Assembly: GCA_003645455.1 (NCBI GenBank)
Contig: QNFE01000003.1
Location: forward strand, 1,442 to 65,441
Direction: 5' to 3'
Length of the DNA stretch: 64,000 nucleotides
Source: Gammaproteobacteria bacterium
GTDB taxonomy: Bacteria > Pseudomonadota > Gammaproteobacteria > QNFE01
The translations under genes and the position numbers were made by a program. The notes beneath the pieces are model-generated. The model worked only from the letters and a program-made list of their open reading frames with translations. It ran no database searches and was not told the origin of the DNA. This document shows, piece after piece, positions 8,967 to 64,000 of the stretch (positions within the stretch are counted from its first letter, which is position 1; the number at the start of each line of letters is the position of its first letter).

Positions 8967-9062
8967 CGGACGAAAATAATTAATAATTAACAGTTATTAG
9001 TTAATAGTGAACGGACAACCAAAATCCTCCACACAACAAAAATCCCACAAAACCAAAAAACC

Positions 9063-9215
9063 CCGTCATTGCGAGGCGGACGGAAAAATGATGTAATATC
9101 AAGCACTTAAACCGCCACGGCAATCTCTTGAGGGGATAACGGACACCCAAAGAGATAACCACGGCAGTTGATTGCACCAGTTCCTCTTTTCTCTCCGTCT
9201 GCCTCGTTATGACGG
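9063..9215. repeat. MITE family 1 copy (TIR CCGTCATTGCGAGG...CCTCGTTATGACGG, about 150 bp)
   Basis: Terminal inverted repeats visible; near-identical copy at 12110..12261; related copies at 32822-32990, 33790-34022, 34545-34728, 61370-61560, 63695-64000. Confidence 0.7.
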
Positions 9216-9315
9216 TTTTTTTTAGATTTAGAATAGAGTTTTTAATTCTCAATTATCCATTCTCAATTTTCAATTATCCTCGTCTGCCTTGTTTTAAATT
9301 CCACCTTTTAAATTA

Positions 9316-11998: not shown

Positions 11999-12109
11999 TA
12001 TAACTATGAAAACAATTAAAACAACAACAGGATTAGTGCAAACAATGAGAGAAATCCGCGACAAATATAGTTGCGAGATTTTGCCTATGTCGCTAACCTA
12101 AAAAAATTC

Positions 12110-12261
12110 CCGTCATTGCGAGGCGGACGGAAAAATGGTGTAATATCAAGCACTTAAACCGCCGTGGCAATCTCTTGAGGGGATAACGGAAACCCTGCGA
12201 GATAACCACGGCAGTTGATTACACCAGTTCCTCTTTTTTCTCCGTCTGCCTCGTTATGACG
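12110..12261. repeat. MITE family 1 copy
   Basis: Near-identical to 9063..9215. Confidence 0.7.
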
Positions 12262-12408
12262 GATTCTTTTTTTGTTTGGCAAAAATATAAAAATTAGTTA
12301 TTTCGCAATTCCACATAGTGGAAACAAGCTCTAAAAACAGAACAAAAAAAACAACAACAAAAACCAAAAAAGTTTATAATAGATGATTTTTTAAAACCGG
12401 AGCAATTT

Positions 12409-31449: not shown

Positions 31450-31508
31450 AATATGCTACTTTATAACAAGAGGACACGCTACCTTGTGGAAGCCCTGATT
31501 AACTACTA

Positions 31509-31529
31509 ACAAGGGGACATGTCCCCTTG
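31509..31529. repeat. 22-nt perfect palindrome ACAAGGGGACATGTCCCCTTG(T)-type mini-element copy
   Basis: Same palindrome at 60387-60408, 60619-60640 and 62561-62582; imperfect second palindrome at 31466-31487. Confidence 0.6.
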
Positions 31530-31603
31530 CTAAAATGTATTTATTATTTATTCTTATAATTATTAGAGCTTTATTACCAAATCTTTCTTTTAATAAAAAA
31601 ATT

Positions 31604-32785: not shown

Positions 32786-32821
32786 AGTTCCACCAAAACA
32801 AACAAATAAAATAAAATAAAA

Positions 32822-32990
32822 ACCCCCGTCATTGCGAGCGTAGCGCGGCAATCTCCTAGGGCAGACGGACACCCAAAGAGACTGCCACGGCATCCTGCCT
32901 CGCAGTGACGGTATATTTTAAGAGACTGCCACACTGCACTTCGTTGCATTGCTGTGACAGAGTTTTTTCGGAGAGATTGTCGTGCAAAAA
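32822..32990. repeat. MITE family 1 copy
   Basis: CCGTCATTGCGAGCG...CGCAGTGACGG termini. Confidence 0.6.
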
Positions 32991-34544: not shown

Positions 34545-34728
34545 CATAAAAAATAATCTCGTCATTACCTAACTTATACAATTGCGAGCAACAGAATCCC
34601 GTCATTGCGAGGAACGAAGAGACAAAGCAATCTCTTTGGGTAAAAAGAGAGACTGCCACGCTCGCAGTGACGAAAACCCCCGTCATTGCGAGGAACGAAG
34701 CAATCTCATAAGGTCAGACGAACACCAA
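34545..34728. repeat. MITE family 1 copies
   Basis: GTCATTGCGAGGAACGAAG motifs. Confidence 0.5.
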
Positions 34729-34960
34729 AGAGACTGCCACACTCGCAAGCTCGTTCGCAGTGACGGATTCTTTTAAGAGACTGCCACACTCGCAAGCTCG
34801 CTCGCAGTGACGGATTCTTTTAAGAGACTGCCACACTCGCAAGCTCGCTCGCAGTGACGGATTCTTTTAAGAGACTGCCACACTCGCAAGCTCGCTCGCA
34901 GTGACAGTATATTTTTTGCTTGCTCGCAGTGACAGTATATTTTTTGCTCGCTCGTTATAA
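34729..34960. repeat. Tandem repeat, 47-nt unit (AGAGACTGCCACACTCGCAAGCTCGCTCGCAGTGACGGATTCTTTTA), about 4.5 copies, derived from MITE family 1 sequence
   Basis: Units begin at 34729, 34776, 34823, 34870; nearly identical. Confidence 0.7.
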
Positions 34961-55057: not shown

Positions 55058-58000
55058 AGTTTAATTTTCTCTATAAGTGACACAATAAAGTTTATTTTTT
55101 CATCATCTGTGGCAAGTGTTTTGTTAAATTCTAACCTATTATTATTTTTTAATTTATATATTTCAGGTTTGTCGGCAATTAGTTTAATTAAATTTGTCAT
55201 ATTTATTTTAGGATTATTTAAAATTTCCATATAACCACCGTCCTCATTCAATTGCATAGTTTTTATATTCATATGTTGCAATTGTAACCTAATTTGAGTT
55301 TGAAAAATCAAGTTTTTTAATTGTTTTGGTAATAAACCAAATCTATCAATTAACTCTAATTGAATACCATATAGAGATTTTTTATCAACCGAAGCGGCAA
55401 TTTTTTTATAAAATACTAAACGTGTATTGATGTCAAAAATATAGGTCTCAGGGATCAGGGCAGGAATATCTATTTCAATACTGGTTTTTTTCTCATCCAT
55501 TAATAGGTTATCAAGATTAGTAACCTTGCCTGTTTTTAGGATTGCAATTGTTTTTTGCAATATTTCCAAATAAAGATTGTAACCTATCTGTTGCATCTGT
55601 CCGCTTTGCTCTTCGCCCAAGATTTCTCCTGCACCACGGATTTCCATATCGTGGCTTGCTAAGGTAAAACCTGCTCCGAGATTATGAGTTTTTTCTATTG
55701 CCTCTAATCTTTTGATGCCATTTTTTGTTATTAAATTTTTATCAGGTATCAGTAAATAAGCATAGGCTTGATGAGACGATCTACCGACTCGTCCTCGTAA
55801 TTGATGCAATTGTGCTAAGCCTAATTTATCAGCACGGTTGATTATAATAGTGTTAGCAGCTGCTATATCTATACCAGATTCAATAATAGTTGTTGCCACC
55901 AAAATATCAAATTTTTGCTCTGAAAACTCCATCATAACTCTCTCTAATTGAGTTTCGTTCATTTGTCCGTGGGCAAAATCAATCTTAGCATTTGGCAATA
56001 AAGAAGATAAGTTGCGACACATTTTGTTGATGGTTTGCACATTGTTATGCAAAAAATAAACCAAACCTCCTCTTGATATTTCACGATTTATAGCATCAAC
56101 GATAATGTTATCATCCCATTGAGTTATAAAAGTTTTTATCTCTAATCTCTCAGGAGGTGGCGAAGCAATTATAGACAATTCTTTTAGTCCTGATAGACCA
56201 AAATTCAATGTTCTAGGAATAGGGGTGGCAGTCATGGTTAGAATATCAATATTAAGCCGATAGGTTTTTAATTTTTCTTTATGACGAACTCCAAAACGAT
56301 GCTCCTCGTCAATAACAATAAGCCCTAGGTTTTTAAATTTATTATCACGACTTAATAATTTATGGGTACCAATAACAATATCCATCTCACCTGATAGCAT
56401 TTTTGCACGAATTTCTTTTGTTTGTTTGGTCGTAGAAAAACGCGATAAAGCTGCAATATTGATAGGGTGATTAGCAAATCTATCAATAAAACTTTCATGG
56501 TGTTGCATAGCAAGTAGAGTGGTGGGGACTAAAATTATAGTCTGTCTATCAGATCCTGCACAAATAAAAGCAGCTCTCATAGCAACTTCTGTTTTACCAA
56601 AACCTACATCTCCGCAGATAACTCGATCCATAGGTTGTTTTTTTGCCATATCATTTTCAATATCATAGATAGCTTTTGCCTGATCTGTTGTTTCAATAAA
56701 TTCAAACTCTCGAACAAATTTTTGATAAGATTTTTTATCAATTTTGTGGGAGAAGCCCTCTACCATCTGCCTTTTTGCATTCAATTCTAAAAGGGCAACC
56801 GCTGTATCGCGAATTTTTTTAGTGGCTTTTTTTTTCTCTTTTTCCCATCTGTTATTACCTAAACTATGCAAAGGAGCATTTTCAGAGCTTGTTCCAGTAT
56901 AACGAGAAATCAGATTTAAATTAGCAACCGGGATATAAAGATAAGATTCGTTAGCAAAATTAAGCTTAATAAACTCCGTCTGGCTGTTTTTTAAAAATAA
57001 CCCCAATCCACCAAAACGAGAAATGCCATAATCCATATGAACCAGAGCATCACCCAGATTCAAATCTTCTAAATTGTTAATAATATTGCCTGAATATGTA
57101 TTTTTTTGTTGGGTTTTGCTGTCAATAATAGCTTTATATTTAGTTAATGTATCATCACAGATAATAGATGTATCTATTTGTTTTAATAGATAATTATAAT
57201 TTGATGACGGTGCGACAATTAATTTTATTCTGCTGTTATTTTCTTTGAGTTGTTGATATGTTTCACAAAGAGTGGAATCTATTGCAAAGTCAGATAGGGC
57301 ATCTTGAATAATTAAAGCCTTGCCTGCTGAATGACAGGTGATAATAATTGATCCTGTGTGTGTTTGGGAATAAGCAACAAAAGATTTAATAGCATTTTTA
57401 TCAATTTTAGAATAGTTAAATTTATCAATAACTTGCAGTGTTTTTTTGAGAGGTTTTTTGTCTTCGGTAAAATAATAATTTTCTTTACTTTCTATTGTTT
57501 TTTTTATCGTTGCAGGGTCAAGATAAAGCTGTGAAACATCTAAAATAGGTTTATTTTTTTCTGTTAAATAAGCATATCTGCTATGACATATCTTAAAAAA
57601 ATCATCCATACTCTGCATAGATTTATCAAAAACAAAAGTTGCATAATTCTCAGGTAAATAATTAAATATAGTTGCCATCTCTTTGAAAAACAAAGGAATA
57701 TAATATTCAACTCCTGCGAATGTTTTGCCCTCCGATATTTTTTCATACATTGTATCAGAGCGGTAGGTGGGGAACTTTAAACGATAATTGTTACGAAAAA
57801 AATCAATGGAGTTGTCGTCCAATAAAAACTCTTTGGCAGGCAAAACTTCTATTTTATCAATTTTTTCAATAGTTCGTTGGTCAGATGTAGCAAAAATTCT
57901 AATAGATTCAATCTCATTATCAAATAACTCAATCCTAAAAGGATTTTTAGCAGCCATGGGATACAAATCAATAATTGATCCACGAATAGCATATTCTCCG

Positions 58001-58485
58001 TGTTTTTCTACCTGTGATACTCGGGTCCACATCATCTGTTCTAATTGAGATTTTAAATCATCTATATCCAATATATCGTTGTTTTTTAAAAGAAATACAT
58101 TTGATTTCAAAAAATTACTGGGAACTATTTTTTGCATTAAAACATTTGCAGTTATGATTAAAAAACCTTTTTTAATTGTTGGTAACCTATATAGGGTTTT
58201 AAGTCTTTGGGAAATAATTTGATTAAAAGGAGAAAAGCCATCATATGGCAGAGTTTCATAATCAGCAAAATGCATAATGTTAGTGTCATCTACATCTGTC
58301 ATAACAAACTTTAAAGTTTTTTCTAAATCAGTTGCATGTTTTTTGTCGCTACATATCAATAAGCAAAATTTTTTCTCGTTTTTATTTTTTTGCATAAAAT
58401 GCTTTAACATCAAAGATGTGGCATATAAAGGCACAGCAGGATTTATAGGTTTTAAAGCAAAATCAAAACTCATACAACTAAACAA
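55054..58485 (-). CDS. mfd: Transcription-repair coupling factor Mfd
   Basis: 1143 aa; GDVGFGKTEVA helicase motif I; DEEHRFGV motif II. Confidence 0.85.
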   Translation of the reverse strand: MFSCMSFDFALKPINPAVPLYATSLMLKHFMQKNKNEKKFCLLICSDKKHATDLEKTLKFVMTDVDDTNIMHFADYETLPYDGFSPFNQIISQRLKTLYRLPTIKKGFLIITANVLMQKIVPSNFLKSNVFLLKNNDILDIDDLKSQLEQMMWTRVSQVEKHGEYAIRGSIIDLYPMAAKNPFRIELFDNEIESIRIFATSDQRTIEKIDKIEVLPAKEFLLDDNSIDFFRNNYRLKFPTYRSDTMYEKISEGKTFAGVEYYIPLFFKEMATIFNYLPENYATFVFDKSMQSMDDFFKICHSRYAYLTEKNKPILDVSQLYLDPATIKKTIESKENYYFTEDKKPLKKTLQVIDKFNYSKIDKNAIKSFVAYSQTHTGSIIITCHSAGKALIIQDALSDFAIDSTLCETYQQLKENNSRIKLIVAPSSNYNYLLKQIDTSIICDDTLTKYKAIIDSKTQQKNTYSGNIINNLEDLNLGDALVHMDYGISRFGGLGLFLKNSQTEFIKLNFANESYLYIPVANLNLISRYTGTSSENAPLHSLGNNRWEKEKKKATKKIRDTAVALLELNAKRQMVEGFSHKIDKKSYQKFVREFEFIETTDQAKAIYDIENDMAKKQPMDRVICGDVGFGKTEVAMRAAFICAGSDRQTIILVPTTLLAMQHHESFIDRFANHPINIAALSRFSTTKQTKEIRAKMLSGEMDIVIGTHKLLSRDNKFKNLGLIVIDEEHRFGVRHKEKLKTYRLNIDILTMTATPIPRTLNFGLSGLKELSIIASPPPERLEIKTFITQWDDNIIVDAINREISRGGLVYFLHNNVQTINKMCRNLSSLLPNAKIDFAHGQMNETQLERVMMEFSEQKFDILVATTIIESGIDIAAANTIIINRADKLGLAQLHQLRGRVGRSSHQAYAYLLIPDKNLITKNGIKRLEAIEKTHNLGAGFTLASHDMEIRGAGEILGEEQSGQMQQIGYNLYLEILQKTIAILKTGKVTNLDNLLMDEKKTSIEIDIPALIPETYIFDINTRLVFYKKIAASVDKKSLYGIQLELIDRFGLLPKQLKNLIFQTQIRLQLQHMNIKTMQLNEDGGYMEILNNPKINMTNLIKLIADKPEIYKLKNNNRLEFNKTLATDDEKINFIVSLIEKIKL

Positions 58486-58746
58486 AAAAGAAAAAATTAT
58501 AGGTATTGTAAACCAAAACTAAAACCAATATTCAATTATTAACAAAACCATAAGATTCTAAGTTTGTTATAATGTTATTCATAACTAACAAATAACTTCG
58601 CATAATGTATATTATGTTAAATTACATAAAATAATAGATGGCAGCAATTTGACAGGATACATATGGGAGTGATTTTCTTGTTGGGGACGATTTATGGATG
58701 AGGAATAAAAAATATGGTTTTTTTATGGTTTTTTTGAAGTTTGTTA

Positions 58747-59991
58747 TCAAAGCCATTCTGCAATGACTTTGATATAATCATCTAAATTCTTTATGCTGTC
58801 ATTAGGAGATGATTTTGAGCTGGAATTGCTTGCAGGTAAGTTATGAGCAATATTATTCCTGATATTATTTATTTTTTTAAAAGTCTTGCCTATTTCTATT
58901 TCTTTTGTTGATAATTTTTTGTTGTTCTTATAATCACTCCAAGAAAATAAAATATCCTTAGCTTCTTTTCTGTTATCTTTATTTGTGTCGTCTAATTTTT
59001 CTTTTTTGCACATAATAGATACACTTGCCTCAGCAAGGCACATATACGCCATAGAAAAATTTTTATTTTCATGATACCATTTAGATAAATTAAGTTGAAA
59101 TTCTGGCAGTGATTGATTTTTGAATCTATTAAAAAAATCTTCTAAATCAGAAGCAATCAATGGCAATATTTTGTTGGATGATGTTTTAAAATTATCAATA
59201 GTTTGTGATAAACTGTTTATGCTTTTTTGTAAGGATCTCATATCTGAAATACTAATGGCATCAGATAATTGATTAAATTTTCCTGAAATATTTTTGTCAT
59301 CAATGTTGGTATTAATTAGTTTTTTAAGTTCAAAACTGTTACCATAGTTTTTAAGATTACTAATTGCCTGACCCCAACTTAACAACTCATAAAATATAGA
59401 AACATCTATGATTACAGAAGCCTCATCTTTTTTTAACATAGCATAAAAGATTCCTTTTATCTTAAAACCTGCACGAATTTTGCCAAATTCTGCCACAATT
59501 AAAGACATTATAGAATGAGACCTAAAAAGATGAGTAATGTCTAAATACAACTGATCTTGCTCGCTTAAGTTCTCTATTATTTTTTGAAATTTTTCAAAAA
59601 TACCCCATAATTCCTCTTGATTGTCTCCTGGAAGCACAACAAAACACTCAGATCCAGGTAATTTTTTACTAATTTTATCATTAAGTGGCTGTAAAAAGCA
59701 ATCATCAATATCTGCATTTTCTTTTTTTTCTAAAATTTTATATGCATAGTCACTGTCATCATTATCACTATAAATTTCGTTAATATTGTCCCACATTGAT
59801 TCGCTTGTACCAATTAAAAATAATCTATCAATTTTATACTTTTCAATTATAGGGTTGGTGGCATATTGTTGATTTCTATATAACTTATTGTTATTTTCAA
59901 ATTTGTAAGTAGTTGTAGTATAATTGTTTTTATTGTTATCGTTTTTAGCAGATTTGCCAGTTCCCAGCAAACTTATAAGAATCTTTGCCAT
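58747..59991 (-). CDS. Csx1/Csm6-like CARF-HEPN protein
   Basis: N-terminal CARF signatures (AKILISLLGTGK...; DITHLFRSHS); C-terminal HEPN R-X4-H (NNIRNNIAHNL); adjacent to CRISPR array. Confidence 0.6.
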   Translation of the reverse strand: MAKILISLLGTGKSAKNDNNKNNYTTTTYKFENNNKLYRNQQYATNPIIEKYKIDRLFLIGTSESMWDNINEIYSDNDDSDYAYKILEKKENADIDDCFLQPLNDKISKKLPGSECFVVLPGDNQEELWGIFEKFQKIIENLSEQDQLYLDITHLFRSHSIMSLIVAEFGKIRAGFKIKGIFYAMLKKDEASVIIDVSIFYELLSWGQAISNLKNYGNSFELKKLINTNIDDKNISGKFNQLSDAISISDMRSLQKSINSLSQTIDNFKTSSNKILPLIASDLEDFFNRFKNQSLPEFQLNLSKWYHENKNFSMAYMCLAEASVSIMCKKEKLDDTNKDNRKEAKDILFSWSDYKNNKKLSTKEIEIGKTFKKINNIRNNIAHNLPASNSSSKSSPNDSIKNLDDYIKVIAEWL

Positions 59992-60243
59992 TATTGTCAT
60001 TCCCCCCTATTTTGTAAAAAATTACACAATAACACAAAGTATGTTGATAAACAAAATTATCTTTTAAGGTTTTATGCTGTTATTCAAAGCAGGTAAAATA
60101 TTTGGCAAAGATTGGTCAGATATTAGGCTCAAATGAATCATGTCTTTGTGTTTAATTTTTTCAATCGACAGATATCAAGAACTGTAGCTATTTTTATAAT
60201 TGATAGGCCGTTTTTATACATTGGTTTGGACTATATTATTCTC

Positions 60244-60796
60244 ACCCTTATTCCCTCCCTTCTCTTTGTGCTTTACTAAATGCAGCCTCTTGGATATTTA
60301 ACAGTTAACAGTTATTAGTTGAGTTATCACTATTAATTTTTAACTATTCATTATTAACTATTTCAGTCGGGTCTCGGTCTCTGACAACAAGGGGACATGT
60401 CCCCTTGCCAAATTAGGGTGTCTTAATCCCCTCGGTGTTTTGTAATTGACAGAGGTAGTTAGAAAATTAGTATATTTGTGCCAGTGGTGAATTTTTAAAA
60501 AATAAACATAACTTGTTATGTTGTTTTTTACAAAATTTGACAATGGTGCAAAGATGCTGATTTAATGACTGCCTATGTTGATTACAAGACGCCATATGTC
60601 GGGTCTCGGTCTCTGACAACAAGGGGACATGTCCCCTTGTCAATAAAATAACCAGGTCTTAATCCCCTTTATGTCGAGCTTCTAATAATTGAAAATGGAG
60701 AGTTGATAATTGAGAATTTTGCATAACCTTACCTTGTGTTTTGTTTTATCCCATAATTTTGTTATACACAATTTTTGATTTTTAATTTTCAATTAT
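60244..60796. CRISPR. Degenerate array end: three split CRISPR repeats, each interrupted by a 100-165-nt insertion, with two spacers derived from the palindromic mini-element
   Basis: 5-prime repeat parts at 60246-60262, 60420-60437, 60656-60676; 3-prime repeat parts at 60366-60385, 60595-60617, 60797-60820; spacers 60386-60419 and 60618-60655. Confidence 0.55.
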
Positions 60797-61266
60797 TGTC
60801 GTCGGGTCTCGGTCTCTGACTTTAATAAACTTACGGCACTTATGCAATGTAAAAGCAGTCTTAATCCCCTTTATGTCGGGTCTCGGTCTCTGACCGAAAG
60901 GTTTTGTTCGTTCTGTTTCGTATACGAAAGGTCTTAATCCCCTTTATGTCGGGTCTCGGTCTCTGACCCTGTCAGTTACTGATGGTGGGATTAAAGATGC
61001 GTCTTAATCCCCTTTATGTCGGGTCTCGGTCTCTGACCAGAAGAAGTAATCGCCTGAAGAGGTAGTAAAATACAGTCTTAATCCCCTTTATGTCGGGTCT
61101 CGGTCTCTGACACAGAAATAATTGGTCGTGGCGAATGGCATAGTGCTTTGTCTTAATCCCCTTTATGTCGGGTCTCGGTCTCTGACTCTACCTCCTGTTT
61201 TTCACTTTTAAAAACAATTACTTACAGACCCCCGTTAACGGAAATCTGTCGTAGCGAAAATCTGAC
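60797..61266. CRISPR. CRISPR array: 37-nt repeat GTCTTAATCCCCTTTATGTCGGGTCTCGGTCTCTGAC, 5 full repeats (60858, 60931, 61001, 61075, 61150), one partial leading repeat, possible degenerate terminal repeat 61227-61266; spacers 33-40 nt
   Basis: Direct inspection: identical 37-mers regularly spaced with unique 33-38-nt spacers. Confidence 0.85.
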
Positions 61267-61369
61267 TATTTTTTTGAGTCAAAAACTGGTGTTTATTATA
61301 CAATTTTATGGTTTTAAAAGTCAAGGTTTTTTTTGATTTTGGGTGGCTTTGAGAGATTAGATTTCCTCC

Positions 61370-61560
61370 CTGCGGTCGCGATGCTTTGTTTCTTCGTTTC
61401 TGGCAATGACAGTTCATCCGTCACTGCGAGCGAGCTTGGCGAAACGTGGCAGTCTCTCTTTTTACCCCAAGAGATTGCTTCGTTCCTCGTAATGACGGCA
61501 ACGAATTACCTAACTTATACAGCAATGACGGCTCCCTAAAAGAGATTGCCATATTCACAC
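61370..61560. repeat. MITE family 1 copies between array and cas operon
   Basis: GTCACTGCGAGCGAGC..., CTCGTAATGACGG, CAATGACGG motifs. Confidence 0.5.
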
Positions 61561-61588
61561 ACTCACTTGCAATGATGAGGTTTAATAA

Positions 61589-61861
61589 TTAAAAAGGACA
61601 GTCATCATCATAAGCAGTATAACCGTTATTGTTATTATAAGAGTTGTGTTTTTGATAGACTTTGCAGAATATTTCCATATTTGTGACTATTTCTTGGAAT
61701 ACTGTCCGATCTTCATAGGCGATATGAAATGGAGCATCGTTTATCATCTGGTCGGTTTTTTTGGCAATTATTGCAGGATCGATAAAATAATCAGGCAACA
61801 GACGAGCTGCATTAATTTCTTGGGTTATTAAATCACATCTTAAATCGTGCTTGGTTTTCAT
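61589..61861 (-). CDS. Hypothetical 90-aa protein, last gene of cas operon (ATGA overlap with cas2)
   Basis: No motif recognised; two Cys near C-terminus; not convincingly Cas4. Confidence 0.3.
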   Translation of the reverse strand: MKTKHDLRCDLITQEINAARLLPDYFIDPAIIAKKTDQMINDAPFHIAYEDRTVFQEIVTNMEIFCKVYQKHNSYNNNNGYTAYDDDCPF

Positions 61862-62160
61862 TTATTTCTCCTTATTTTAGTAAAATTTTTTGGTAAAAGA
61901 TAATCTAATGGCGTATCTTTGCCATAGATTGAAATTTTGGTTTTTTTATCAAAACGATATATTTTTATATCATCTTGTTTTGGATCAATTATTTTATTAA
62001 TATCTGTTTGATATTCTAAGATTTGTCTGTTCGTTGTGTCTGCCATATATACCGAATATTGAATAGGCAAGGTTATGGCACACAGGTATTGGTGAACTTT
62101 TCTCAATCGTTTTTTGCATTTTATATCGTAACAAATTAAATATAAATTTGTATGTGCCAT
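61858..62160 (-). CDS. cas2: Cas2 (copy b)
   Basis: LYLICYDIKCKKRLRKVHQYL...IQYSVYMA...DDIKIYRF Cas2 signature. Confidence 0.7.
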   Translation of the reverse strand: MAHTNLYLICYDIKCKKRLRKVHQYLCAITLPIQYSVYMADTTNRQILEYQTDINKIIDPKQDDIKIYRFDKKTKISIYGKDTPLDYLLPKNFTKIRRNK

Positions 62161-62163
62161 TTT

Positions 62164-63255
62164 TTAAAATAACTCCGCTTGAATGGGGGTTGTTATATTT
62201 AACACTACATCGTCATCGTTGTCATTGATGAGGCTGTTTTTGAGTTGATAACTTTGTAATCTTAACCATCTTCTGTATGGTGGTAGCCATTTTTCTAATT
62301 GATGATAATAGATTTTACGCCCTGTTTTTGATAACAAGCATTTTTTAGCATTTTTAATAAAATGTTCTTGGCGAATATCTTGCTCGGCAAACAAACGCCA
62401 GATAAAATATTCCGCCGAGGGGCGAATTGGCTCTATTATATCAGAGGCAAGAGCAGCATGATTGTAGGATGGTTTATGTAGAAAACCTATGTATGGATCC
62501 AGACCTGCTTGATATTAACTCGGCAGTTAAATACATGTATTCAACTTCCCATAAGAACTAACAAGGGGACATGTCCCCTTGTCAAAATAGAGAAGTTTAT
62601 TGTTGCCAGTTTAATAAATAGCTTTGACAGCTTGGCTGTATAAAATTGTATAAGTCAAAGACAACACCGAATTAACAGGATCTGGGGCAGGATGTTTGGC
62701 TCGTTTGGTAAAATTCAAAGATGGAGCAAATAATTGAGTATAGGCTTGAAAGAAAAATTTGGAGGCACAGCCTTCTATACCGAGTAACTGGTTGGTATTG
62801 ATGGGTTCTGTCAGAGATTTATTTGTCAATAAAAATTTTAATTTATCATAGGTTTGCTGTAAAATTTTATCTTTATCGGTGCGAGTGCTGGTGATTTTTT
62901 TAATCAATTTTAGCTGTTTGGTGATTTTGTTGGTAATTTGATGGGTTGCCAGATTAAGCGGAATATCTTTTTTTTCTAACCATCTATATTGTGAGATTCT
63001 GCCTTTGGCATCTTTGTGAGGCGAGCCAAAGATTATGACAGGTTCCACTGATCTTTTGTTGATAAAAACAATGCTGACATTATGCTTTTGGCAAGCATAT
63101 AATAACTTGGCGTTGAGATTGCAGTGACCGTAGATTATTATTCTCTCGATGAGCTGCAAAGGTAAGGCTTGATAAGTTTTATCGGCTTTGAGTTTGATCC
63201 TTTTGCCATCGGTATCAAGGTTGATGTGTTGTTTGTCAATATAGATTGTTTTCAT
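62164..63255 (-). pseudogene. cas1: cas1 interrupted in frame by a 96-nt palindromic mini-element insertion (62518..62613) carrying stop codons
   Basis: N-terminal part ends ...LSLTYTILYSQAVKAIY*; C-terminal part resumes QAGLDPYIGFLHKPSYNHAALASDIIEPIRP...; same frame on both sides; catalytic E/H/D present. Confidence 0.7.
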
Positions 63256-63263
63256 TTTAGTTG

Positions 63264-63557
63264 TTATCCGATATATATCATATTGTTTTCAGCAGGCTTC
63301 AAAGCAATGCCACAGGTTATCAGAGGATTATTTTTAGGTAATTTTATGATTAGAAAACGATCTGTTTTTTTGTTTAGTTGGGGGATGATCTGGTTTTTTA
63401 TATTCTGGCAATTTGCCGGGGTCAGATAACACTCATAGACCGATTTTTGCCATTGATAAGAATAGGATTGCAAAATCTTGCATATACGAGATCGGGTGTT
63501 ATGACAACTTATGTCATAGGATAATAAATAAAAATGATTATTTGGTTTTAAGCTCAT
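63264..63557 (-). CDS. cas2: Cas2 (copy a), upstream of cas1
   Basis: HFYLLSYDISCHNTRSRICKILQSYSYQWQKSVYECYL...DRFLIIKL Cas2 signature. Confidence 0.65.
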   Translation of the reverse strand: MSLKPNNHFYLLSYDISCHNTRSRICKILQSYSYQWQKSVYECYLTPANCQNIKNQIIPQLNKKTDRFLIIKLPKNNPLITCGIALKPAENNMIYIG

Positions 63558-63694
63558 AACAACAATGGTGGAATTAAAAAAAACCACTATTGTATATTAT
63601 TTTTTTAAATATGTGTTTTATGACAAGCTTGTCATTTTTTTTGGCGAGTAAAAATAATGCCAGTCCATTTTTTAAGTGGTCAGGGTGGTTATCT

Positions 63695-64000
63695 CTTTTT
63701 GAAGTCGTCATTGCGAGGAATTCGCCGCAGAGCGGATACCGTGGCAATCTCTTGAGGGTTTAGTGTGTAACCTCAGGAGATTGCCACGGCTACGCCTCGC
63801 AATGACGGGGTTATGTTTTGGTGCTGTTGCGGTGTTTTATATTAACTTATTTCTTGTCTGCGAATTACCTAACTTATACAGCAATGACGGGGTTTTTTGT
63901 GGCAGTCTTTTGGTTTAGCCAAGAGATTGCTTCGCTACGCTCGCAATGACGGCTCCCTAAAAGAGGTTGCTTCGTTCCTCGCAATGACGGGGTTTTTTGT
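63695..64000. repeat. MITE family 1 copies (window edge)
   Basis: GTCATTGCGAGGAATTCGCC...CGCAATGACGG repeated. Confidence 0.55.

Follow-up and report, generated by a model that had tools for sequence, protein, structure and literature searches.

The CRISPR array and its palindromic spacers

The stretch of DNA considered here, referred to below as the window, comprises 64,000 nucleotides of a gammaproteobacterial genome (assembly GCA_003645455.1, contig QNFE01000003.1, positions 1,442 to 65,441) and carries a CRISPR (short palindromic repeats, clustered and regularly interspaced) array of seven spacers together with cas genes. Two of the spacers, at 60386-60419 and 60618-60655, contain the same 20-nt perfect palindrome, CAAGGGGACATGTCCCCTTG, which is here called PAL. 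The window holds precisely four copies of the palindrome, at 31510, 60388, 60620 and 62562, where shuffled sequences lead to an expectation of zero, and its presence in the two spacers is real and non-random.

On the plus strand the full 37-nt repeat reads GTCTTAATCCCCTTTATGTCGGGTCTCGGTCTCTGAC. At both 60386 and 60618 the dinucleotide AA stands ahead of PAL and abuts GTCGGGTCTCGGTCTCTGAC, the final 20 nt of the repeat on that strand, and the two spacers read identically as AACAAGGGGACATGTCCCCTTG straight after the repeat. They then part ways into CCAAATTAGGGT and TCAATAAAATAACCAG, after which each enters GTCTTAATCCCCT, the start of the repeat. A preliminary description of this DNA, made from its sequence alone, had noted an identical module next to a repeat followed by divergence, and this is borne out. 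Its treatment of the two units as spacers also holds, as they are 34 and 38 nt in length, within the range of 33-38 nt found for the five other spacers, and lie between repeats that were once complete.

The best promoter-like site, a TTGACT-18-TATAAT arrangement at 61324-61295 that agrees with 11 of 12 consensus positions, is found on the minus strand within the leader (61187-61345, minus strand). A sister strain shares the 150 nt beside the first repeat at around 89% conservation, and its contig (L099) stops exactly at the leader-repeat junction. The opposite end of the array is marked by a truncated repeat, R8 (60366-60385), beyond which there is no repeat remnant. Moreover, the minus-strand repeat terminates in ATTAAGAC, a typical 8-nt CRISPR RNA (crRNA) tag. 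Promoter, leader conservation, truncated repeat and tag are four lines that indicate transcription of the array from the minus strand, on which the cas genes lie as well. The PAL-containing spacers are therefore the two oldest, S7 (from 60386) and S6 (from 60618), and what they share is their 3' end and not their start, with the common crRNA-sense end, ...CAAGGGGACATGTCCCCTTGTT, abutting the downstream repeat.

From the leader-distal end, and with all repeats and spacers on the minus strand, the array begins with R8, of which, as read in the crRNA sense, just the initial 20 nt are left, GTCAGAGACCGAGACCCGAC. S7 reads ACCCTAATTTGG-CAAGGGGACATGTCCCCTTG-TT in the crRNA sense and is followed by the final 13 nt of R7, AGGGGATTAAGAC (60420-60432), which include the 8-nt tag. 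R7 is split by I2 (60433-60594), a 162-nt foldback insert with self-complementary arms and the look of a miniature transposable element with inverted repeats (MITE), and its first 23 nt lie on the far side at 60595-60617. S6, which reads CTGGTTATTTTATTGA-CAAGGGGACATGTCCCCTTG-TT in the crRNA sense, is succeeded by the final 21 nt of R6 (60656-60676). R6 is split in turn by I1 (60677-60800), a 124-nt MITE-like insert with GTCG at both sides, and its first 20 nt are located at 60801-60820. In plus-strand terms the two spacers have the 3' 20-23 nt of a repeat at their left and the 5' 13-21 nt at their right, with the inserts of 162 and 124 nt intervening, an interruption that had escaped the preliminary description. 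Once I1 and I2 are removed, the flanking repeat parts sum to the whole 37-nt repeat, only the terminal repeat being truncated. The younger part of the array (60821-61186) is formed of S5 to S1 (37, 36, 33, 37 and 38 nt) and five intact 37-nt repeats.

The arms of I2 are 79 nt long, 72% complementary and 2 nt apart, with a fold z-score of -5.0, and no second copy of it is present in the window or in the loci fetched for comparison. I1 has inverted arms of 34 nt that are 74% complementary, a fold z-score of -2.1 and a 13-bp terminal stem; partial copies are found at 9244-9277 of the window and twice more in another locus (L079). These two unrelated inserts have struck exactly the two repeats that border S6. 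A third spacer, S4 (60895-60930, CTTTCGTATACGAAACAGAACGAACAAAACCTTTCG), also has a terminal palindrome, the 14-nt TTTCGTATACGAAA at its 5' end. Matches of the repeats to CRISPR-DR8 in Rfam were all below threshold.

An assembly artefact as the source of this structure is ruled out by independent contigs. The ENA contig k141_804148 spans window positions 55747-60654 with a single mismatch, k141_1148694 spans 60403-64000 with 100% identity, and Logan contigs are identical wherever they overlap, such that three assemblies agree.

The cas genes and the interruption of cas1

The cas genes of the window are encoded on the minus strand. A cas2 gene encoding 100 amino acids (61858-62160; TIGR01573, 42.1 bits against a cut-off of 24.5) is preceded by the two parts of cas1, of which the C-terminal part (62167-62514) covers profile positions 212-322 and the N-terminal part (62614-63255, 214 amino acids) positions 2-212. 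Upstream of cas1 lies a second cas2-like gene encoding 107 amino acids (63264-63587; TIGR01573, 36.5 bits), and the single cas1 is in this way flanked by two different cas2 genes. A conserved 90-residue open reading frame (61589-61861), which is 77% identical in a sister strain, is situated between cas2 and the leader, whilst a CRISPR-associated protein of the TIGR02221 (TM1812) family is encoded downstream of the array (58747-60000, minus strand; 126.4 bits against a cut-off of 76.25).

The preliminary description held that the effector was missing, an apparent absence that arises because the window ends where it does. Contig k141_1148694 (ERZ27227324; L090) runs on past the right window edge and directly beyond it, over positions 1-9185 of L090, carries a Cas02710-family gene, cas10/csm1, csm2, csm3, csm4, a 549-residue RAMP protein, an AAA/PDDEXK_9 protein and a protein of 517 residues. 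The scores for Csm1 (517.7 bits), Csm2 (58.8), Csm3 (222.5) and Csm4 (126) all exceed the NCBIfam cut-offs, and the 549-residue RAMP protein, from its position, is probably Csm5. No cas6 was seen on this contig. By these assignments the locus is a complete-looking type III-A (csm) system, with effector genes that read as open and full-length.

The element in cas1 occupies 99 nt (62515-62613), made up of a 97-nt MITE, TTAAACTGGCA...TGCCGAGTTAA, and a duplicated TA, with PAL at its centre (62562-62581). Excision of the 99 nt restores a Cas1 of 329 residues that aligns without gaps to ten homologues. A JGI contig (L096) encodes an intact Cas1 of the same length (P0121) that belongs to the same 90%-identity cluster, and its junction, AIKAIYQAGLDPY, represents the empty site, in which GCTATCTA is joined directly to TCAGGCAGG. 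The disruption of cas1 by a palindromic mobile element, as first described, is a clean event with an empty site in a sister strain. Both sister-strain contigs, the one with the intact cas1 (L096) and the one with the leader (L099), end before the array.

With its terminal inverted repeats, TA duplication, length of 97 nt, multiple copies, empty site in a relative and marked foldback (fold z-score -5.1), the insert has the features of a MITE. At least seven further copies, 90-96% identical, are present on metagenome contigs, which have several more MITE families in common with the window. The insertion is probably recent, as the reading frame is open in each part of cas1 apart from this break. 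The element resembles the TA-targeting MITEs of the IS630/Tc1-mariner type, such as Correia, in its terminal inverted repeats, TA duplication, foldback and many copies, but differs from them in carrying at its centre a module that is common to unrelated elements. No autonomous parent or transposase for it was identified.

Distribution of the palindrome

PAL is a short palindromic module common to several elements, and not one element. At least two MITE families of this lineage have it at their centre, and it is also found in a Mu-like phage and, in other phyla, in MmeI-like restriction genes. The second MITE-like family is represented in the window at 31505-31539 (plus strand), with an arm, GGAAGCCCTGATTAAC, at 31480-31495, and elsewhere by a related copy (L088:1339-1407, 88%). 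A degenerate PAL, ACAAGAGGACACGCTACCTTGT (31465-31487), lies 22 nt upstream of the perfect copy at 31510, and the GGAAGCCCTGATTAAC arm stands between the two. Both chromosomal copies of the window, at 31510 and 62562, have ACT ahead of AA-PAL, just as the preliminary description reported.

In a set of species-representative genomes that does not include the source metagenome-assembled genome (MAG), the exact 20-mer was found at 66 loci, mainly in MAGs of Bacteroidota, Chlorobiota and Ignavibacteria. Metagenomes scanned with AACAAGGGGACATGTCCCCTTGYYAA gave 21 loci, of which 13 came from one sample that contains this lineage; they included neither the window nor a copy with the spacer tails. In IMG/VR, the palindrome is confined to two contigs, in which it is extremely dense, with 11 copies over 10.6 kb of one and 20 over 17,977 nt of the other. 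The latter contig, IMGVR_UViG_3300022552_000049 (L094 and L095), has approximately one copy per 0.9 kb, compared with two copies outside the array in the 64 kb of the window.

The PAL-dense contigs belong to a Mu-like transposable phage that encodes an rve protein with Mu-transpos_C, a MuB-like AAA protein, Gam, MuF, a terminase and baseplate J. Many copies of the palindrome are here part of in-frame tandem units, translated as TRGHVPL(P/S)xDxL, that lie inside the transposase, the MuF-like protein and the linker of the terminase. A single member of the cas1 MITE family, 94-97% identical, is also present in the phage and ties it to this host lineage. Further loci listed for the phage are L093, which is the same as L086, and L076. 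The RGHVPL frame is used by 81 of the 103 PAL sites that fall within open frames of at least 150 codons.

In over half of the genome loci (35 of 66) PAL lies in MmeI-like type IIG restriction-modification genes, and 33 of these 35 have an IS200-like Y1 domain nested within their methyltransferase domain. PAL is found in frame at two fixed hot spots of the MmeI-like genes, one ahead of the sequence KKDGIFYTPKY and the other between the HUH motif and the Tyr helix. Genes with a nested Y1_Tnp domain include L002, L004, L009, L017, L029, L048, L066, L089 and about 30 others, and some relatives without the Y1 domain (L019, L033 and L079) keep PAL at the first hot spot. The L089 gene comes from the source lineage itself and contains a 33-nt PAL unit that, by our own comparison of the sequences, matches the middle of the cas1 MITE at every position.

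No other CRISPR array that holds PAL is present in the fetched loci, which instead show tandem PAL repeats and, in a Burkholderiales MAG (L028:520-740), a PAL segment of about 76 nt that is flanked by an unusually long direct duplication, of around 55 nt, of coding-like sequence. Amongst 50,697 records of cultured phages, the sole exact match to the 23-nt ACAAGGGGACATGTCCCCTTGTT lies in an unannotated stretch of Vibrio phage vB_VcorM_GR28A (MT366762.1:74009-74031). A role for PAL as a terminator was considered and dropped, as it has no T-run.

Several features of PAL are reminiscent of the repetitive extragenic palindromic (REP) elements that are associated with RAYT proteins of the Y1/HUH type. 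It is a short, GC-rich hairpin that is multicopy, single or in tandem, and it is linked to a gene with an IS200-like Y1 domain. Unlike REP elements, it has one and the same sequence across phyla and commonly lies within genes and in frame, with the 81 of 103 sites in the RGHVPL frame. The Y1 domain differs from RAYT in being nested inside an MmeI-like gene, with the palindrome within that same gene. A palindrome tolerated in frame in coding genes, at interdomain linkers, is also known from the Rickettsia palindromic elements, which are 100-150 nt in length and confined to Rickettsia. PAL differs from these in being 20-36 nt long, in encoding TRGHVPL and in its presence in several phyla and a phage. 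In length and in the peptide that it encodes it is likewise distinct from the PARCEL repeats, which are 75 nt long and specify 25 amphipathic residues (PMC2996958).

The searchable literature held nothing relevant on the PAL DNA string, on RGHVPL or on MmeI combined with IS200/HUH, and a protein search with a TRGHVPL-repeat peptide gave no significant match. PAL is an undescribed 20-nt perfect palindrome, identical across phyla and in frame in essential phage genes, and with its link to restriction genes that have a nested transposase domain it may merit study in its own right.

Origin of the two spacers

On balance it is likely that S7 and S6 are genuine type III-A acquisitions from PAL-bearing DNA and that their shared end was fixed by PAL itself. 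Both tails open with YCAA after the palindrome (CCAA and TCAA), and in a set of gammaproteobacterial and phage sites that was partly selected for YYAA the commonest continuations of AA-PAL are TCAA (24 of 70) and CCAA (7 of 70). In an unbiased phage set, YCAA follows AA-PAL in 5 of 21 sites. As the tails open with a flank of the PAL family, the whole of each spacer looks PAL-derived. The identical register of the two spacers also requires an explanation. By our estimate, about 2% of random 36-nt windows in the PAL-dense phage hold a whole AA-PAL and two such spacers would share their register about once in 15 cases, and random sampling therefore cannot explain the identity. The shared 3' end, ...CCCCTTGTT, is placed one nucleotide outside the foot of a 22-nt hairpin, ACAAGGGGACATGTCCCCTTGT. 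In S6 and S7 transcripts the 3' PAL hairpin has a folding energy of -15 kcal/mol, against -0.6 to -3.5 kcal/mol for S1 to S5. On the crRNA-sense strand, this shared end carries the 3'-OH that becomes linked to the repeat at integration.

S7 and then S6 would have been the first two integrations by Cas1-Cas2 into what is now a seven-spacer array. The donors would have been different pieces of DNA, each with AA-CAAGGGGACATGTCCCCTTG-YCAA, and the likeliest source may be PAL-dense foreign DNA such as the Mu-like phage, or else a diverged MITE copy. The shared end could have been set by the PAL hairpin blocking the 3'-to-5' trimming of the prespacer, or by a PAL-specific nuclease that cuts beside PAL and leaves an end to be captured by Cas1-Cas2, with the opposite end placed by the usual length ruler to give 34 and 38 nt. 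Later, each repeat bordering S6 was split by one of two unrelated foldback MITEs, the terminal repeat is truncated, and the entry of the PAL-centred MITE into cas1 at a TA put a stop to further adaptation. The anatomy and orientation of the array, the MITE insertion and the distribution of PAL are direct observations, whereas acquisition as opposed to insertion, the identity of the donor and the manner in which the shared end was set are inferred.

A more specific proposal, which we think improbable, is that the Y1/HUH domain of the MmeI-like genes cleaves a PAL hairpin substrate, in a partnership like that of REP and RAYT that would have spread across phyla and into the Mu-like phage as an in-frame insert encoding TRGHVPL, and that Cas1-Cas2 captures the cut end. 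The spacers would in that case record a cut between T and AACAAGG... on the plus strand, which gives ...CCTTGTT-3' on the crRNA strand. Cutting in the MmeI manner, 20/18 nt from a site within PAL, was dropped as it predicts cuts 6-10 nt outside PAL and not 2 nt.

Acquisition hot spots at DNA ends, namely phage ends, double-strand breaks and restriction cuts, have reportedly been described by Levy et al. in 2015, Modell et al. in 2017 and Maguin et al. in 2022. As with those hot spots, independent spacers here start at or near one defined position where a DNA end would be offered to Cas1-Cas2. Unlike them, the position is marked by a multicopy palindrome of 20-22 nt and the spacers come from different copies; moreover, the system is a type III-A without Cas4 or a protospacer adjacent motif (PAM), and the end-forming activity is here only proposed. 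Spacer acquisition biased towards a defined position is already known, whereas here a multicopy palindrome would be its cause. If PAL does fix the prespacer end, then a DNA structure or a hairpin-specific nuclease, and not a PAM, would select the CRISPR memory, and this would be a new input into adaptation in PAM-less type III systems.

The preliminary description had attributed the shared end to a PAM, and had proposed that the motif be deduced from the flanks of the palindrome copies. The shared end is, however, leader-distal, and the three nucleotides beside AA-PAL vary (TTT, TCT, ACT, TAT, ACC and others), such that no PAM emerges from the flanks. Type III systems use no PAM.

Several observations weigh against acquisition with a PAL-fixed end. 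No full protospacer for S6 or S7 is present in the window, the 66 genome loci, the 21 metagenome loci or the two viral contigs; an exact donor copy would carry the strings ...CTTGCCAAATTAGGGT and ...CTTGTCAATAAAATAACCAG. The best partial matches both lie in the Mu-like phage, at 34 of 38 positions for S6 (L094:5-42) and 31 of 34 for S7 (a PAL unit of the terminase), and are no better than those to other PAL sites with AT-rich tails. S1 to S5 have no match in phages. Furthermore, as the tandem units of the phage measure 33, 36 and 40 nt, a PAL unit of spacer size is alone no proof of acquisition measured by a ruler, and we know of no Cas1-Cas2 system shown to set a prespacer end at a hairpin.

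The database comparisons recommended in the preliminary description yielded no full match for any of the seven spacers. None of them matches a plasmid, and 20-22-mers from the four spacers tested against IMG/VR (S1, S2, S3 and S5) gave no match. Amongst cultured phages S6 has just the 23-nt PAL match in vB_VcorM_GR28A and a weaker match to a Staphylococcus phage (31 nt at 90%). The proposed derivation of the spacers from the element in cas1 stands at most for the shared module. The cas1 MITE family, which is 90-96% conserved, continues TCAAAATAGAGAAGTT after PAL, and compared base by base with its sequence S6 agrees at 29 of 38 positions and S7 at 30 of 34, with 26-27 nt contiguous, such that the tails speak against this source. 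Nor does the suggestion of self-targeting hold within the 64-kb window, in which there is no full or near-full match and the longest self-matches, 26-27 contiguous nt, correspond to the PAL module alone.

Insertion would provide a different route to the same arrangement, with PAL placed twice at the junction of spacer and downstream repeat as a REP-like unit, for instance by a hairpin-specific Y1/HUH enzyme, so replacing or truncating older spacers. PAL is clearly mobile or expandable, as different MITE families contain it, it forms tandem units of 33-54 nt, and phage and restriction genes carry it in frame. Two further small elements have entered the array and a third has entered cas1, and the lineage itself encodes, in L089, a PAL-carrying MmeI-like gene with a nested IS200-like Y1 domain. 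Yet once the PAL module, at least 26 nt long, is subtracted, only 8-12 nt could be old spacer in either unit, the totals of which are nonetheless a normal 34 and 38 nt, and the residual tails open with the PAL-family flank YCAA and not with unrelated sequence. Elsewhere the flank of AA-PAL (xxT, often ACT, TCT or TTT) is unlike the repeat end CTGAC, and the insertion of a transposon does not duplicate a CRISPR repeat. In the preliminary description, insertion was to be favoured if the genomic copies all lacked the spacer tails and also carried repeat-like flanks. No copy with the tails was found in the window or the fetched loci, in keeping with insertion, but repeat-like flanks are absent too, as the 164 PAL sites of 90 other loci all lack them. 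Because the spacers are normal in length and no other PAL copy has such flanks, insertion is judged unlikely, and we infer acquisition instead. It is also quite unlikely that a single acquisition was followed by duplication of spacer and repeat through unequal recombination, with the non-PAL part of one copy replaced from another PAL locus. Both units have the same 44 nt, made up of PAL, TT and the repeat's initial 20-23 nt, and PAL copies elsewhere could supply short homology for recombination. The tails, however, differ in length (12 and 16 nt) and sequence with no graded divergence whilst the shared part is 100% identical, one-sided homology of 20-26 nt offers no simple route to a length-preserving replacement, and the neighbouring inserts I1 and I2 are unrelated.

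The condition of the repeats raises the question of self-targeting followed by silencing, in which the spacers would derive from, or match, the host's own PAL MITEs and type III autoimmunity would have been relieved by disruption of the repeats that flank them. Both repeats bordering S6 are split and the terminal repeat after S7 is truncated, whilst the five younger repeats are intact; S7 is identical to the cas1 MITE at 30 of 34 bases; and, PAL being palindromic, the crRNA could form base pairs across 20-26 nt with all PAL transcripts, whichever way these run. Such pairing would be limited to the 3' part of the crRNA, though, and the activation of Cas10 in type III systems depends on pairing near the 5' tag. 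There is no full chromosomal match in the 64 kb, and degenerate repeats at the trailer end are common without selection. Disruption of exactly the repeats of the PAL spacers is compatible with silencing and also with ordinary trailer-end decay. Silencing is regarded as unlikely. The related scenario of autoimmunity and then decay, put forward in the preliminary description, fares no better, given the lack of a full self-match in the window, effector genes that look intact and a cas1 lesion that affects adaptation and would not relieve interference. Self-targeting spacers together with degenerated CRISPR-Cas loci were reportedly described by Stern et al. in 2010. The present locus is like these in that spacers resemble mobile DNA of the host itself, a cas gene has been interrupted and adjacent repeats are damaged; it is unlike them in that the self-match is limited to the module of 26-27 nt, the effector operon is intact and the broken gene is cas1. 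Least credible of all is a degenerate regulatory mini-array akin to CreA/CreR, in which partial repeats and a pseudo-spacer would guide Cas proteins to a partial match near the cas genes. Partial repeats do flank the units and there is a 26-nt match within the cas operon (62560-62585), but two foldback insertions into repeats that were once complete and have exact halves account for the partial repeats, and the matching site belongs to a MITE, probably of recent arrival, within the coding sequence of cas1 and not to a promoter. To our knowledge, modules of the CreTA/CreR type have been described for type I and type V systems only.

Beyond the question of the spacers, the locus shows small mobile elements dismantling a CRISPR system stepwise, through cas1 and two repeats, whilst the effector stays. 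The genome is very rich in small repeats. One dispersed family with the motifs GCAATGACGG and CGTCATTGCGAGG fills the distal leader and the region to the right of the cas genes, with members in the window at 61416-61549, 63660-64000, 34560-34905, 32818-32857, 9050-9293 and 12100-12280, and the same motifs are also present in the leader of the sister strain (L099) and in Ga0164315 contigs.

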